A stretch of 64,000 nt of DNA from Thermodesulfobacteriota bacterium. Its GTDB lineage: Bacteria; Desulfobacterota_D; UBA1144; Nemesobacterales; UBA2774. A program made the translations under genes and the position numbers. Position 1 is the stretch's first letter. Each line of letters begins with the position of its first letter. The stretch spans positions 1,568,001 to 1,632,000 of the forward strand of contig OY729416.1 in NCBI GenBank assembly GCA_963422265.1. The letters are read 5' to 3'. The notes below the pieces were generated by a model. The model saw only the letters and a list, made by a program, of their open reading frames with translations. It was not told the origin of the DNA and made no database searches. Shown here piece by piece: positions 1 to 7,214 of this stretch.

Positions 1-261
1 TCTATCCATTTTACGACGCCAAAACTCATGCCATTCTGGTGATATGCTTTTTCTAGGCACGCCCGTATAAAAATGAATAGAAACTGGAATGCCCCATCCT
101 TGTTTTTCAGATATGGAGTGAGCTAGCTTCTGAATATCGTAGTTGGGGTATCGGTAGTTGAAAGCTTCTTTGATACTGTGAAAGAAGTTTTGATCATCAA
201 CGAAAAAAGAATCCCTTTCCCTGCTCGGAGGCAGGGACATGTTACTTTGAGGTTCGATCAT
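1..261 (-). CDS. NYN/LabA-DUF88 (PIN-like) domain putative ribonuclease; 5' part only, runs off the window edge
   Basis: Not in the ORF track. Manual translation from ATG 261 (SD GGGAGG at 274-269) is open to position 1: MIEPQSNMSLPPSRERDSFFVDDQNFFHSIKEAFNYRYPNYDIQKLAHSISEKQGWGIPVSIHFYTGVPRKSISPEWHEFWRRKMDR. The FVDxQN...YD...L...FYTG pattern is typical of NYN-domain N-termini. Confidence 0.75.
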   Translation of the reverse strand, partial: MIEPQSNMSLPPSRERDSFFVDDQNFFHSIKEAFNYRYPNYDIQKLAHSISEKQGWGIPVSIHFYTGVPRKSISPEWHEFWRRKMDR

Positions 262-281
262 GACTGAACCTCCCAAGGGGC

Positions 282-329
282 AAAAAATAACCCCGACGGG
301 CCCTTCCAAAAAGGAAGAACGCGGCGGGG
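282..329 (-). terminator. Intrinsic terminator-like hairpin (second repeat) just before the NYN RBS
   Basis: GC-rich hairpin 329-291 followed by TTATTTTTT (290-282). Confidence 0.55.
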
Positions 330-443
330 ATGCAGATGTCTAACCGAAAACTCCTTAGAGCAAATAGTAATTGTCCGAGGAGGTATATTTGGCTTAGATG
401 ATAACCCCAACGGGCTCTTACAAAAGGAAGAACGCGGCGGGGA
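287..443 (-). repeat. Two imperfect ~43-44 bp direct repeats (287-330 and 401-443), each self-complementary
   Basis: Minus strand: TCCCCGCCGCGTTCTTCCTTTTGTAAGAGCCCGTTGGGGTTAT vs TCCCCGCCGCGTTCTTCCTTTTTGGAAGGGCCCGTCGGGGTTAT; 3 substitutions and 1 indel. Confidence 0.95.
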
Positions 444-458
444 GCAAATGTTGCTATG

Positions 459-488
459 ACTGTATATGATTTTATAAGTGCTTGTCAA
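459..488 (-). promoter_or_regulatory. Putative sigma70 promoter for the repeat RNA/NYN unit
   Basis: TTGACA (488-483), 18 nt, TACAGT (464-459), just downstream of the hsdM stop. Confidence 0.5.
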
Positions 489-510
489 ATAGTTTTTTTG
501 TAACATAGTT

Positions 511-2067
511 TCATTTCTCACTCCCCATTTTCCTGAAAATACTTTCAATCTCACCATCAATTGTTTTAGACTCCTTCTCAAGTTCTTTTAGCTCTTTCCA
601 TATCTCCGGTATAGGTCTAAGGATTTCTTTTTCCGTCGTGTCAACGTAGCGCGACGGTGAAAGGTTGTAGTCGTTTTTCGCTGCCTCACCCGTAGTTATA
701 ACCTTTGAGAAACGCTCAATATTCTCTCCCTTGGCAAAGGCATCTGCTATCTTCTTTATGCCTTCATCGGTCAGGTAATTTTTAGGTCTGCCCTTCTTAA
801 ACTCTCCACTTGCATTTATAAACGTTATCCTGCCCTTTTGCTCCTTAGGCTTATTTCTGCTTAACAGTATGATTATTCCCGCTGCGGTTGTGTTGTAGAA
901 AAGGTTTTCAGGAAGAAGGATTACGCCGTCTATAAGGTCGTTTTCCACAAACCACTTGCGAATTCTCTTTTCTTTGTCCTCACCTGCCGCCCCGCTTCCG
1001 CGAGTTACAGCTCCGGTATCTATGACGACCGCAGCCCTTCCTTTAGGGTTAAGCGTCTTCGCCGTGTGCTGAAGCCATGCCCAGTCTGCCTTTCCAGTTG
1101 TTATGCCCCCCTGTGATTCAAATCTATCAAACGGGTCGTCCTCGTATGTAGAGACATTGAAGGGCTGGTTCCACATCGGATTGGCTACTACTATGTCAAA
1201 CTGCTTTAGACTACCGTCTTCGTTACGGAATTTTGGATTAGTCATTGAGTTTCCGCGTGAGATTTTGGATTCCATATCGTGAATAATTGTATTCATAAGT
1301 GCCATGGCGTAGTTGTCGCTCCCAAGCTCCTGCCCGAACAGCTTGAGGGGCTTTCCCTTTTTGGCATCAGGGTCGCGCTCTAGCAGGGCAAGCTCGCATT
1401 TGACAAGCAGGCCAGCTGATCCGCAGGCGTAGTCATGGACGGTTTCCCCCTGACGGGGTTTCATCATCCTCGCCATAAGCCAGCCCACTTCGGTAGGCGT
1501 AAAGAACTCCCCGGCGCTTTGGCCAGAGTCCTCGGCGAATTTTCTCAGTAGGTATTCATAGCAGCGTCCTAGAAAGTCCGGCTCAACGTTAAAAAGCCCA
1601 AGTCGGTATCGCGGGTCAGAAAGCGTCTCAATCACGACTTTAAGGGCAGAGTCGCTTACCTCACGCTCCCCGCCTTTTGTTTCGTTGTAATCAACAAGGT
1701 TTATCACCCCCTCTAGAGAGGGGTTTTCTCTTGCAACTGTCCGCATCGCGGTAGTTATTTGTTCTCCGAGGTTATTCGTGTTCGGGCCTTTACCCTGTGG
1801 CGAGTCAAGCTGCTCGCGTCCGCTAAGAACTGCCCAGTGGGTTTCAGGCGGTAGATAAAAGCGCGTCATTTCTCTATCTTCACTGGCGATTCTCAGTGCT
1901 TTTTCCACTCCTCCTTGCGACTCGGCAAGCCGTGAAATTTCATCTTCAAACACGTTGGAAAGACGCTTTAAGAAGATAAGAGGAAGAAGGTAGTCTTTGA
2001 ATTTAGGGGCATCCTTTTCACCTCTGATTGAGCAGGCGGCTTTCCACAGCATTTGTTCCATCATCAT
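511..2067 (-). CDS. hsdM: Type I restriction-modification methyltransferase subunit M
   Basis: HsdM N-terminal LW..A..IRG...FKDYLLPLIFLKRL; GEFFTP; DYACGSAGLL (motif I); NPMW at motif IV; YNLSPSRYV near the C-terminus. Confidence 0.93.
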   Translation of the reverse strand: MMMEQMLWKAACSIRGEKDAPKFKDYLLPLIFLKRLSNVFEDEISRLAESQGGVEKALRIASEDREMTRFYLPPETHWAVLSGREQLDSPQGKGPNTNNLGEQITTAMRTVARENPSLEGVINLVDYNETKGGEREVSDSALKVVIETLSDPRYRLGLFNVEPDFLGRCYEYLLRKFAEDSGQSAGEFFTPTEVGWLMARMMKPRQGETVHDYACGSAGLLVKCELALLERDPDAKKGKPLKLFGQELGSDNYAMALMNTIIHDMESKISRGNSMTNPKFRNEDGSLKQFDIVVANPMWNQPFNVSTYEDDPFDRFESQGGITTGKADWAWLQHTAKTLNPKGRAAVVIDTGAVTRGSGAAGEDKEKRIRKWFVENDLIDGVILLPENLFYNTTAAGIIILLSRNKPKEQKGRITFINASGEFKKGRPKNYLTDEGIKKIADAFAKGENIERFSKVITTGEAAKNDYNLSPSRYVDTTEKEILRPIPEIWKELKELEKESKTIDGEIESIFRKMGSEK

Positions 2068-2316: not shown

Positions 2317-3759
2317 TTACATTTGATTTGTCAAGTCTGACGCAGGTTGCAACAAGGCTTCCCTAAATTTCTTACCTGTCAAAGATCTTCCTGCATCATA
2401 GCAGGCGATGCTTATGGGACTGAAGAGGACCGTTCCACTATCATATCTCCGGTAGCTACGTTTGGTAAGTGTAAAGCAGACGCAACCTGGTGAATAAGGT
2501 GCATTTCCGAGCTTCTGCTCCGTGGCAAAATCAAGTAGCCCCTTAATCTCAGACAAGTTTTCAAAGGGTCTGTCAGACCATTTAATTTCAATTGCTAGCT
2601 TTGCTTGTGTTCCCGTTTCATCCATAATTACTAAGTCAACCTCTCCGTTTCTCCAGCGAGCGTAACACAATCTTTCAAACTGCTTTGTAAGGTGAAATAG
2701 GTGGCTGAAGACGGCGGTTTCCGCGAGTTTTCCCAAAACGGTTTTGTTATCCTCACTCACCGGTCCAAACAGCGCTGCATACATTGAGGGGTTTGTAAGA
2801 TAGACTTTGAATTTATGCTCTCGTTTGAACCTTCTAGCGCTCTTGTCTATTCGGTTGAGGCGTTTTATCAGGAAGGCGGCTTCAAGATATTCTAGATACC
2901 TATATAGTGTACCCTTAGCTACATTTGATCCTTGAGAGAGTCCAGGAAGATCAATCTCCTGTCCCGTGTTGTGAGCGAGCGTCATAAATAGCCGATTGAG
3001 TTCTGGAATATCGCTGATTCCATAAAGGCTTGGCAGGTCGCGCAGAAGCACCTTGTCTATGATGTCGTTTCTGATAAAGCGGCTTGGATCCTTTCTAATC
3101 TCTTCTGAGAATACGGCTTCTGGATAACCTCCAAAGTTTATGTAGTTCACAAACTCTTTGTTGACTTCTTCAATCTCCGTTTTCACGGTGATGCTTACTT
3201 CTCTGAATTTCATGTATTCATAAAACGTCAAAGGGCGCAGGGTAAAGTCGGTGAATCTTCCTGCGCCGGACTCATCACTTTTCAGTTTTAGAGCGGCAGC
3301 CGCCGAACCTGTGGCTATGAAGCGGTGCTGTGGGTAGGAGTCAACCAATGATTTCAAGTGTTTCTCCCAGTCTTTCAGGTATTGGATTTCATCAAAAAAG
3401 AGATAGGCGGACCCATTGTGGGGAATTGTATTCAATTCGATGAACGTCAGAAGTATATTTTCAAGCGACAGTCCAGCATACAGCGGGTTGTCTAGAGGGA
3501 CGTAAAGAACGTTTTTCGGGTCAATTCCTTCCTTTATAAGTTGGGCTATTGCCTGATGAACCATAACGGTCTTGCCCACCCTGCGGGGTCCCATCAAGAC
3601 AACCGCACGGTTAATCTCCGTTTTAGCTATTAGTTCGTAAAATGGGGAGAGATAGCCTCGTTTCGGTTTATCTTTCCACCTAACGTCATTGCTGTCTTTC
3701 CACCAGGGACTGTCCATGCGAAGGCGCTGGAGGATTTCTTCTTTTGAAACACTTAACAT
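2317..3759 (-). CDS. AAA_14/DUF4143-type ATPase with C-terminal PD-(D/E)xK-like domain
   Basis: Walker A GPRRVGKT, Walker B LFFDEIQ, TGS, GGYPE, C-terminal EVDLV...IEIKW. ATG 3759 preferred over TTG 3795. Confidence 0.85.
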   Translation of the reverse strand: MLSVSKEEILQRLRMDSPWWKDSNDVRWKDKPKRGYLSPFYELIAKTEINRAVVLMGPRRVGKTVMVHQAIAQLIKEGIDPKNVLYVPLDNPLYAGLSLENILLTFIELNTIPHNGSAYLFFDEIQYLKDWEKHLKSLVDSYPQHRFIATGSAAAALKLKSDESGAGRFTDFTLRPLTFYEYMKFREVSITVKTEIEEVNKEFVNYINFGGYPEAVFSEEIRKDPSRFIRNDIIDKVLLRDLPSLYGISDIPELNRLFMTLAHNTGQEIDLPGLSQGSNVAKGTLYRYLEYLEAAFLIKRLNRIDKSARRFKREHKFKVYLTNPSMYAALFGPVSEDNKTVLGKLAETAVFSHLFHLTKQFERLCYARWRNGEVDLVIMDETGTQAKLAIEIKWSDRPFENLSEIKGLLDFATEQKLGNAPYSPGCVCFTLTKRSYRRYDSGTVLFSPISIACYDAGRSLTGKKFREALLQPASDLTNQM

Positions 3760-3787
3760 AAAGTTCAATCTTACTAAAAAGAAGTTG

Positions 3788-3827
3788 ATTGTCAAATAAG
3801 ACTAATTGATTAGTCTTATTTGACAAT
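3788..3827. repeat. Perfect 19-bp inverted repeat with 2-nt spacer, carrying outward-facing TTGACA hexamers
   Basis: ATTGTCAAATAAGACTAAT-TG-ATTAGTCTTATTTGACAAT. Confidence 0.9.
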
Positions 3828-4043
3828 AAGGCAAATAGTTTAATGAAAACGGTAAGTTAGAAGTGTCAAATAGTCATGCTCCGAGTCTCATCGGGGAAGC
3901 ATCAGAGAGAAAGTCCAATAATCATAATCAATTGTTCTTAATTTAACATTATCCTGAATTAGTTAATAAAACTAGTAGGTTAGCATATGCAAATAAGCGC
4001 ACGGCGTTGGTAGATTTCCAATTATGATGGTAATTTACTTTCT

Positions 4044-5045
4044 ATGAAAAAGACTATTCAAGATTGGGTTCACGTTCCCGGTATTCATTGTGGTTCCGTG
4101 ACGTTGCGCGACGTTATGACCTATTATGGCTACAACTGGTCTGAGCCTATGTGCTTTGGTATCGGTGGCGGGCTTGGCTTCTATTATACGAATAGGGATG
4201 ACATCAGTCCGACGCGCATGATATTCGTAAGGGGACCTAATATGGAAACCTCTTTTTTCGATAACCTGGGAATACCAACCGAATGGAAGCATGCTGATCA
4301 GAACGTCATAGATATTATTAGGGCATGTATAGACAGGGACATCCCCGTCATCATACAAACGGATATTTACTATCTAGCGTATTATAATTCTCTTACGCAC
4401 TTTCCGGGACACGTTGTATCCGTATGGGGCTATGATGATGAGAAAGAGACCGTGCTCTTAGCTGACACGCAGTTCGCTGGATTGAAGGCAGTCGATTATA
4501 CGAGTTTGAAGAGCAGTATGGCGTCTAAAGATCCTTCCAACCCTTTGGATAATAACTTCATTGAGGTGAAAGTAGGAACTCATCCGATAGGACAGCTATC
4601 AGAAATCATTCCACAAGCCATCAGACGTAACGCTCGTAGAATGATTGAGGGTGCGGTAGGAAAGAGGGGTGAGTCAGGCGTAAGGATGATTAAGGTCATG
4701 TCTGAGGACATAACTAGCTGGATAGATCTGCCCGATTGGAAATGGTCGGCAAGATTCGGCTATCAGGTTATAAAAAAGAGAGGGGTTGGCGGGGCTGGAT
4801 TCAGATGGATATACAGAGACTTTCTCAGGGAAGCAGAGAACATAGTTCCCTTGTTAAAGCAATTGAGGCTCTCAGAAAAGATGGACGCCATAGGGAGTAA
4901 ATGGAGTAGCTTAGCTCTGCTTCTCAAGAGAATTAGCGAAGGGGACGCCCCCGATGGTAGTCTTCTGTGCAAAGCCTCTAAGGATGCATACGAGCTGTGG
5001 GAGCTTGAGAGTGAATTTTACGCAACCGTGATTGAGAAGGTGTAG
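4044..5045 (+). CDS. BtrH N-terminal domain / DUF4872-like protein (putative Cys peptidase fold)
   Basis: HxxGxHC...SEPMCFGIGGGLGF, DIYYLAYY..HFPGHVV.V.GYD, GGAGFRWIY.DFL.EA. Confidence 0.7.
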   Translation: MKKTIQDWVHVPGIHCGSVTLRDVMTYYGYNWSEPMCFGIGGGLGFYYTNRDDISPTRMIFVRGPNMETSFFDNLGIPTEWKHADQNVIDIIRACIDRDIPVIIQTDIYYLAYYNSLTHFPGHVVSVWGYDDEKETVLLADTQFAGLKAVDYTSLKSSMASKDPSNPLDNNFIEVKVGTHPIGQLSEIIPQAIRRNARRMIEGAVGKRGESGVRMIKVMSEDITSWIDLPDWKWSARFGYQVIKKRGVGGAGFRWIYRDFLREAENIVPLLKQLRLSEKMDAIGSKWSSLALLLKRISEGDAPDGSLLCKASKDAYELWELESEFYATVIEKV

Positions 5046-5203: not shown

Positions 5204-6883
<1,680 letters not shown>

Positions 6884-6926
6884 CTAAATGTCTTTTGCTT
6901 GATGTATCCCCATCCCCACTAACCCC

Positions 6927-7214
6927 CTACTCAATTACCGCTAATATCTCCTCTTCCCTTATTATCAAATACTCCTCCCCCTCTATGCTTATCTCCGTCC
7001 CACCATACTTGCTAAACAAAATCCTGTCGCCCTCCTTAACGTCAAGAGCCCTTACTCCACCCTCAGACGTTATCGCTCCTTTCCCCACTGCTACTACTGC
7101 ACCCTCCTGCGGCTTCTCAGATGCCGTGTCAGGAACTATTATACCACCCTTCGTCTTCTCAGGCGCATCTATACGCTTTACCAATACCTTGTCCTGTAGA
7201 GGCCTTACCTTCAT
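6927..7214 (-). CDS. groS: Co-chaperonin GroES
   Basis: [26 protein letters not shown]. Confidence 0.99.

Follow-up and report, generated by a model that had tools for sequence, protein, structure and literature searches.

Here, we examine a putative gene module at the start of a 64,000-nucleotide (nt) stretch of DNA from a Thermodesulfobacteriota bacterium (assembly GCA_963422265.1). This stretch, hereafter the window, corresponds to positions 1568001-1632000 of a single 1.78-Mb contig (OY729416.1; 44% GC). On its minus strand, a promoter is followed by two related hairpins, a U tract, a Shine-Dalgarno (SD) sequence and a gene for an NYN-domain nuclease. A first-pass annotation had proposed that these elements form a system resembling type III toxin-antitoxin (TA) loci, with a twin hairpin as its RNA, and inspection of the sequence located every one of them where that annotation had placed it. 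Comparison with related loci shows that the hairpin accompanies an entire subfamily of NYN genes and that its fold is under selection. The features of the locus are listed below. R1 denotes a covariance model of the hairpin; the U tract and SD were read directly from the sequence, and the last entry, given for context, lies outside the module.

459..488, minus strand: sigma-70-type promoter; -35 box TTGACA at 488-483, -10 box TACAGT at 464-459, 10/12 consensus matches
443..451, minus strand: single-stranded 5′ flank ahead of hairpin B, with the family pattern A-N-Y-U-G-C-U
405..442, minus strand: hairpin B, promoter-proximal, without a U tract; -19.1 kcal/mol, z -3.5; R1 30.4 bits
330..404, minus strand: spacer of 75 nt, unique sequence, with no convincing promoter
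291..329, minus strand: hairpin A, gene-proximal, stem of an intrinsic-terminator-like element; -24.0 kcal/mol, z -2.6; R1 39.1 bits
282..290, minus strand: U tract UUAUUUUUU, directly 3′ of hairpin A
269..274, minus strand: SD sequence GGGAGG, 7 nt before the ATG
1..261, minus strand: first 87 codons of the NYN gene, ATG at 261 (open reading frame (ORF) of the same genome; Pfam NYN)
511..2067, minus strand: hsdM, methyltransferase of a type I restriction-modification (R-M) system (Pfam N6_Mtase 1.1e-88, HsdM_N 2.3e-21)

The TGA stop codon of hsdM lies at 513-511, and the -35 box of the module 23 nt further on. A second promoter scan gave an alternative -10 box, TATACA at 466-461 (spacing 16), and hairpin B follows the -10 box at 16-18 nt, the usual range in the family being 13-22 nt. 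No second promoter of convincing quality was found between hairpins B and A; the best match upstream of A has 4+2 mismatches. The NYN gene as a whole encodes 228 amino acids (aa), is intact, and ends 425 nt past the window start.

The two hairpins are evidently copies of each other. Their 5′ arms are identical over 22 nt, their 3′ halves are 88% identical, and the copies are spaced 113/114 nt apart. As the first-pass annotation had described, three substitutions, all in the 3′ half, distinguish them, and both folds have CxU and CxC mismatches at matching stem positions; we find, in addition, a 1-nt difference in loop length. That only one copy precedes a U tract also proved correct, the 10 nt after the stem containing 8 T in copy A and 5 in copy B. 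Copy A retains both the U tract of the family and its closeness to the start codon (29 nt). The 17-nt arm occurs just twice in the 1.78-Mb genome when up to 2 mismatches are allowed, and a genome scan with R1 returned the two window copies and one match with an E-value of 2.4. With only two genomic copies, a repetitive extragenic palindrome (REP) or other dispersed palindrome is ruled out.

When the leader is folded as a whole (window 262-345), the CCCC arm of hairpin A is able to pair with the GGGA of the SD sequence, and the GGGG arm with a run of C residues after the U tract. In this predicted fold, the alternative pairings represent a possible anti-terminator conformation. The C-run is present in several relatives, and is not general.

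The NYN subfamily and its upstream hairpin

The identity of the encoded protein, earlier judged from its first 87 codons, holds for the full gene. The protein matches Pfam NYN (PF01936) over residues 20-161 with 31.9 bits, above the cutoff of 24.2, and this is its sole Pfam match. Its AlphaFold (AF2) model has a predicted local distance difference test score of 84.7; according to Foldseek, the best match in the PDB is 2qip, a LabA-like NYN protein (E 3e-7), and the NYN domain of MARF1 (5yaa) is matched with a probability of 1.0. A search of solved structures with the sequence profile of the family gave nothing better than E 0.09 (2qip), and an NCBIfam scan assigned the protein to no family. 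The match above the Pfam cutoff, the structural similarity to 2qip and the presence of the acidic residues described below liken the protein to the NYN.COG1432/LabA-like group. Proteins of this kind are numerous in bacteria. In the accessible part of the 2017 classification of the PIN-like superfamily, NYN.COG1432 is entered as a group of unknown function, and no RNA element is described for it (PMC5499597). Compared with that group at large, the present subfamily is tight, is marked by a conserved C-terminal extension of ~45 aa, and has an obligatory upstream hairpin.

Members of the subfamily are ~208 aa long. Of the 2852 candidates from one search, 2716 protein clusters had E ≤1e-3. Identity is 51-67% for the best 120, except for one twin at 97%. 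Residues D22, Q24, N25, D125 and D131 are invariant in the family, D150 and D152 are conserved in at least 90% of its members, and all seven are present in the window protein. The unusual DDQN motif, for which the first-pass annotation had entered a caveat, is real and rare. Among 121 family proteins, 108 have G after the first Asp, 3 have A and 2 have D, with 8 unmatched by the pattern; the D specified by codon 23 of the window gene (193-195) is shared solely with the 97%-identical twin.

Among stretches scanned from species-representative genomes, at least 531 of 600 encode a relative, and the best 80 of these were taken as homologue loci. Their proteins show 47-65% identity, and they come from many phyla, including Planctomycetota, Acidobacteriota, Verrucomicrobiota, Gemmatimonadota and Thermodesulfobacteriota. 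In all 80, the hairpin lies directly upstream of the gene and on the gene's strand. Almost all share a common upstream layout, in which a TTGACA-type promoter, a short leader ending in U-G-C-U, a GC-rich hairpin, UUAUUUUUU and the start codon follow one another. The order of promoter, structured RNA, terminator and ribonuclease gene, proposed for the window from a single locus, holds across the family. The hairpin itself typically has a 9-bp outer stem that begins with CCCCG and, beyond an asymmetric internal loop, an inner stem of 3 bp capped by a GNRA or UUCG tetraloop.

The same linkage is seen in further sets of sequences that did not enter R1. Full-length NYN genes number eight in 120 genomes of the phylum, and all eight have the hairpin directly upstream, three of the eight genomes probably being the sources of loci L002-L004; the scores are weak in G059 (20 bits) and G095 (18.9 bits). 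Same-phylum genomes that carry the hairpin include G028, G048, G038 and G095. The viral contigs of IMG/VR contain 14 related stretches, and each of the 11 family members with at least 40% identity has the hairpin, three of them weakly (16.6-22.9 bits). Scores in this low range (16.6-22.9 bits) belong to L003/G059, G095, L111, L119 and L120. A plasmid search returned three records, one of which is of this subfamily: a copy on a Methylobacterium megaplasmid, 43% identical, with a hairpin of 30.1 bits that has a compensated outer stem and no U tract. An NYN protein of another subfamily, 26% identical and encoded on an Acidovorax plasmid, has no such hairpin upstream. Across the 80 loci, the 120 phylum genomes, the plasmid and the viral contigs, we found no intact family member without the hairpin. 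On this comparative evidence, the hairpin is a mark of the whole NYN subfamily.

The motif has no counterpart in Rfam 15, in which searches gave no match at the hairpin in 8 loci (E ≤1) and none in window positions 250-500 (E ≤10). Matches for L014 stayed below threshold (12-17 bits), and such matches are only to the terminator parts of small RNA (sRNA) families.

To characterize the surroundings of the hairpin, promoters and U tracts were surveyed for 80 hairpins, comprising those of 79 homologue loci and window copy A, which itself fails the promoter criterion. A promoter with up to 1 mismatch to the -35 consensus and up to 2 to the -10 consensus precedes 61 of the 80 at a distance of no more than 90 nt, compared with 22 of 1348 random windows from the same loci, and the gap between -10 box and stem is 13-22 nt in 49 of the 80. 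The stem is followed by a T-rich stretch, with at least 7 T among 10 nt, in 71 of the 80. One upstream hairpin is present in 76 of the 80 homologue loci. Departures from this pattern include L018, with two complete promoter-hairpin-U-tract units 99 nt apart, as well as L036, L003 and L063, with two hairpins each, and L086, with three. In L018 and L086, promoter-hairpin-U-tract units without any ORF stand ahead of the gene-proximal unit. In both the window and units 1-2 of L086, the U tract of the first copy is weakened and the second copy is without a promoter of its own, so a two-hairpin transcript is expected from these loci.

The distribution of the module is patchy. Its motif is found in 9 of the 120 phylum genomes, including the window's own, and in 0 of 32 other genomes from the same family. 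No match was found by tblastn in 50,697 phage genome records, and with only 14 related stretches in IMG/VR this is not a typical phage gene. In several genomes, the hairpin has outlived the gene. In G054 and G067 (L090, L091, L095, L096), it is followed by only ~25 N-terminal NYN codons, and other pieces of the gene are found at distances of 3.3 kb and 11.6 kb downstream, which suggests that the gene was split by insertions. In G061, the NYN gene contains stop codons and the hairpin is kept. In G024 (95% complete), three diverged but still pairing hairpins, with two promoters, lie between hsdM and a Fic gene, at the position orthologous to that of the window module (L086, 1290-1600); no NYN gene was found with P0001, either at the hairpin site or in the whole assembly.

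Selection on the RNA fold

That the hairpin is maintained as an RNA fold had been surmised from the two window copies, and the family alignment bears this out. The alignment (A2) has 82 rows, namely the 80 loci and the two copies of the window, and its consensus structure was computed with RNAalifold. Twelve base pairs are predicted, and in 11 of them changes are seen on both sides. Paired cells make up 96.4% of the total, compared with 87.1% in shuffled alignments, and the covariation score is 0.337, compared with 0.156; for neither measure did any of 500 shuffles reach the observed value. This shuffle control overstates significance because the sequences are related. Stronger evidence comes from sliding the partner strand by 1-3 columns, upon which paired cells drop to 37-59%, and from the many independent pair types, such as the 35 CG, 23 GC, 7 GU and 6 UA pairs that occur at one position.

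The alignment also indicates which strand is under selection. There are 88 G.U cells as opposed to 9 A.C cells, and the fold is therefore selected on the sense strand, transcribed with the gene. Conservation extends to bases that do not pair. The best-kept positions of the 5′ flank are A in 76, U in 80 and C in 79 of the 82 rows; an A in the internal loop is kept in 78 of 82, and the first two U residues after the stem in 82 and 80 of 82. Such near-invariant unpaired bases argue for recognition by a protein. Overall, mean pairwise identity is 72% for the motif versus 58.5% for coding DNA.

Possible functions of the hairpin RNA

What might this RNA do for the nuclease? Neighbouring genes offer no other partner. 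Pfam was searched with the nearest ORF on each side of the gene in L002-L076 (75 loci; 135 of 145 extracted ORFs; L077-L081 left out), and no conserved protein partner, such as a protein antitoxin or the second gene of a two-gene system, emerged across these loci, with the proviso that ORF calling was crude and about half of the ORFs have no Pfam match. The NYN protein is the only protein co-inherited with the RNA and is, therefore, the obvious candidate to recognise the hairpin. A need for restraint is made plausible by the activity of one bacterial NYN protein. In the accessible part of a preprint (bioRxiv 10.1101/2024.04.08.588522), a stand-alone, CRISPR-associated NYN protein of Bacteroides fragilis is described as a sequence-nonspecific, Mn-dependent nuclease of single-stranded RNA. 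Like the present protein, it is a stand-alone NYN protein, and its partner is a repeat-derived structured RNA; however, as far as that text goes, it is encoded at a type III CRISPR locus, with a proposed role in trimming CRISPR RNA, whereas the present locus has neither a CRISPR array nor a cas gene.

We tentatively propose that the locus is an RNA-controlled NYN ribonuclease module, built like a type III TA locus and lying outside the known type III families. Judged from sequence comparison, it would be a horizontally spreading, self-contained unit made up of a strong sigma-70 promoter, a conserved hairpin of ~45 nt that doubles as intrinsic terminator, a ribosome-binding site and the NYN ribonuclease of ~210 aa. 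Most transcripts would end at the U tract of the hairpin and yield a small hairpin RNA, and a minority would read through to give the NYN mRNA. The hairpin RNA would be a specific ligand of the NYN protein and restrain the nuclease, either in trans, as an antitoxin in the manner of type III TA systems, or in cis, as an operator on its own mRNA. In the present genome, the hairpin appears to have been duplicated, copy B, after the promoter, having lost its U tract and copy A, before the gene, having kept it; the RNA expected from the window locus would, accordingly in form, carry two hairpins. Its point of insertion would lie between hsdM and the remaining genes of a type I R-M operon. Three features of the family speak for a trans-acting RNA and against a leader that acts in cis only: the ORF-less tandem units, the hairpins that outlive their gene, and the failure to find an intact gene lacking the hairpin.

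The resemblance to type III TA systems (ToxIN, CptIN, TenpIN), which the first-pass annotation had emphasized, is thus upheld in part. The shared features are a single promoter, a structured RNA, a Rho-independent terminator and an endoribonuclease gene, in this order and with no protein antitoxin; in the window, the promoter occupies 488-459, and the stem and U tract 329-282. Distribution is similarly patchy and mobile. The comparison is ambiguous as to the repeat array, since repetition of the RNA unit is limited to the window and a few relatives. The nuclease, on the other hand, is NYN/PIN-like and does not have the ToxN/AbiQ, CptN or TenpN fold. It matches only NYN in Pfam and only HEC-09 in PADLOC, and falls in none of the known type III toxin families. 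Known type III antitoxins are arrays of 36-45-nt, pseudoknot-forming repeats, whereas the RNA of the module is usually a single hairpin of ~34 nt that is itself the terminator, and the repeats of the window are split by a unique 75-nt spacer. We found no description of an NYN-linked leader RNA or of an NYN type III TA system in the literature searched, which was that outside subscription journals and bioRxiv supplements. Taken together, the TA reading is a plausible hypothesis.

Several observations weigh against this proposal. R1 was built from the 80 homologue loci, and its scores on those loci are circular; the independent sets are smaller than this training set. A single hairpin, itself the terminator, is the norm of the family, unlike the repeat array of known type III antitoxins, and the twin repeat described in the first-pass annotation turns out to be confined to a few loci. 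In 41 of 78 loci, the distance from the stem to the heuristically assigned start codon is 19-24 nt, which places the hairpin right beside the ribosome-binding site; such a spacing fits a cis-acting leader equally well. In G024, either the hairpin can serve without an NYN protein or the loss of the NYN gene is recent. Orphan hairpins precede a hicB-hicA pair in L009 and an ABC permease gene in L093 (G038). The DDQN motif in place of DGQN suggests that the window enzyme may be attenuated or altered. Many neighbours of the family are housekeeping genes (ParB, Lon, RNase E/G, CarB, aldehyde dehydrogenase). As to a role in defence, HEC-09, a distant relative and the only tested NYN defence candidate, gave no protection against the phages tested, according to the accessible part of its description.

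The main competing explanation is that the RNA acts in cis only. The hairpin would then attenuate transcription of the NYN gene and/or serve as a translational operator in its leader; NYN itself might bind or cut it in a negative autoregulatory loop, and there would be no antitoxin acting in trans and no TA behaviour. This is possible, if rather doubtful. It would account for the invariable position of the hairpin between promoter and ORF, on the same strand, for its closeness to the start codon in those 41 of 78 loci, and for the prevalence of single copies, and it could draw on the alternative conformation of the window leader, in which hairpin A pairs through its arms with the SD region and the C-run. 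However, the ORF-less tandem units of L018 and L086, each with promoter and U tract, would be superfluous in a purely cis-acting leader, and pairing hairpins would not be expected to persist where the NYN gene is broken or absent. Moreover, a strong terminator right after a strong promoter would be odd for a simple leader.

A broader version of the proposed RNA-controlled module can also be envisaged. It would be a phylum-spanning class of RNA antitoxins, in which NYN is neutralised by a single ~50-nt terminator-hairpin sRNA made from its own leader. Such a class would be the first type III-like TA or defence module with an NYN toxin and a non-repetitive antitoxin, and it would travel as a one-gene cassette, often nested in R-M or other defence loci. 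In this full form, we regard the idea as unlikely.

Another explanation centres on the host operon. PrrC is an anticodon nuclease found in type Ic R-M loci; it combines an ABC ATPase with a nuclease and is regulated by R-M proteins. By analogy, an R-M complex might keep the NYN protein latent until phage anti-restriction releases it, and the hairpins would then serve as terminator of hsdM and as an internal promoter cassette. As with PrrC, a ribonuclease gene is nested in a type I R-M operon in the window, where it lies between hsdM and the genes for Fic, half an HsdS and HsdR, and type I R-M genes are nearest neighbours in 8 of the 75 loci (L004, L005, L008, L010, L016, L062, L066 and L069). 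In addition, defence functions are over-represented among genes nested in R-M loci, according to the accessible part of a preprint (bioRxiv 10.1101/2024.01.29.577857). Yet ~67 of the 75 loci are not beside R-M genes, and all of these have the hairpin; R-M is therefore not the general regulator. PrrC also differs in fold and in its control by R-M proteins, with the present family residing mostly outside R-M loci. The promoter, furthermore, lies upstream of the hairpin, where an insulator design would need it downstream. Retaliation of this kind is, on balance, improbable.

The hairpin could also be an ordinary terminator or an mRNA-stabilising 5′ stem, a passive part of a mobile cassette whose conservation reflects recent common descent. 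A GC-rich stem with a U tract has the look of a terminator, and the sub-threshold Rfam matches are to terminator parts of sRNA families only. Recent descent, however, sits poorly with proteins at 47-65% identity and coding DNA at 58.5%, when the motif is still at 72% with near-invariant unpaired bases; compensatory changes at 11 of 12 pairs and the NYN subfamily that has no hairpin likewise make this explanation very improbable.

Least likely is a site for recombination or transposition that works as folded single-stranded DNA, akin to integron attC sites or the ends of IS200/IS605 elements, and mobilizes the NYN cassette; the many unrelated genomic sites with no conserved neighbour, the orphan and tandem hairpins, the tolerance of G.T pairs in single-stranded DNA and an IS200-like Y1 transposase near L009 would fit, but the hairpin stands on one side only (no R1 match downstream of NYN in 80 loci), no recombinase is consistently nearby, and the conserved promoter before and U tract after the hairpin point to transcription.

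With these findings, a large NYN subfamily gains an obligatory, covarying RNA partner absent from Rfam 15, and with it a testable handle on its function. If the RNA restrains the nuclease, type III TA systems would gain a family whose toxin has another fold and whose antitoxin is a minimal hairpin, and this would account for the movement of a one-gene nuclease cassette between phyla in the absence of a protein antidote. If the RNA acts in cis only, it would still be a new and widespread regulatory RNA motif.

Genomic context

In the window genome, the NYN gene is nested in a type I R-M operon, directly downstream of hsdM. Further along the minus strand (genome 1560095-1568261), it is followed by genes for a 509-aa Fic protein and a 187-aa half HsdS with one target-recognition domain. 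Beyond these lie genes for a TcmP-family protein (TIGR04474, 3.4e-61) and a DUF5131 protein, a 975-aa ORF that we take, by eye, to be HsdR, and a truncated ORF for a YgjP-like metallopeptidase. Across the 75 loci, a Fic gene comes directly after NYN in L003 and L004 only, which are the closest relatives of the window locus, and in the window itself. Neighbours elsewhere include DUF1156 methylases, GmrSD, ThsA, integrases, transposases, WYL, ORF6N and AAA_21 proteins.

The single PADLOC model matched by the NYN protein is HEC-09 (E 1.1e-8, 33 bits, profile positions 3-160 of 203). This defence candidate, a distant relative, likewise has an NYN domain and is encoded within multi-gene defence loci, in its case Hma systems; the accessible part of its description mentions no RNA element. 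Membership in HEC-09 is ruled out, the match being weak and partial and the host locus being type I R-M, not Hma.

The L009 locus contains two related segments. In the first (1940-2600), an orphan hairpin, ~2 kb upstream, is followed by a hicB-hicA-like pair and a small membrane protein gene. In the second (3640-4960), ~1.7 kb on, there is a degraded hicB-like ORF, the NYN module and a gene for a similar membrane protein. This pattern suggests a segmental duplication in which NYN replaced hicBA.

Upstream of hsdM in the window are genes for an HTH_3 protein and an AAA_14/DUF4143 ATPase. The HTH_3 ORF (70 aa, 2064-2276) ends exactly at the start of hsdM (2067), and in L004, L016 and L069 an HTH_3 domain is fused to the N-terminus of HsdM. 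The window arrangement appears to be either a split fusion or two tightly coupled genes. Farther away on the minus strand (window 5204-7214), ORFs of 554 and 95 aa resemble GroEL and GroES by eye.

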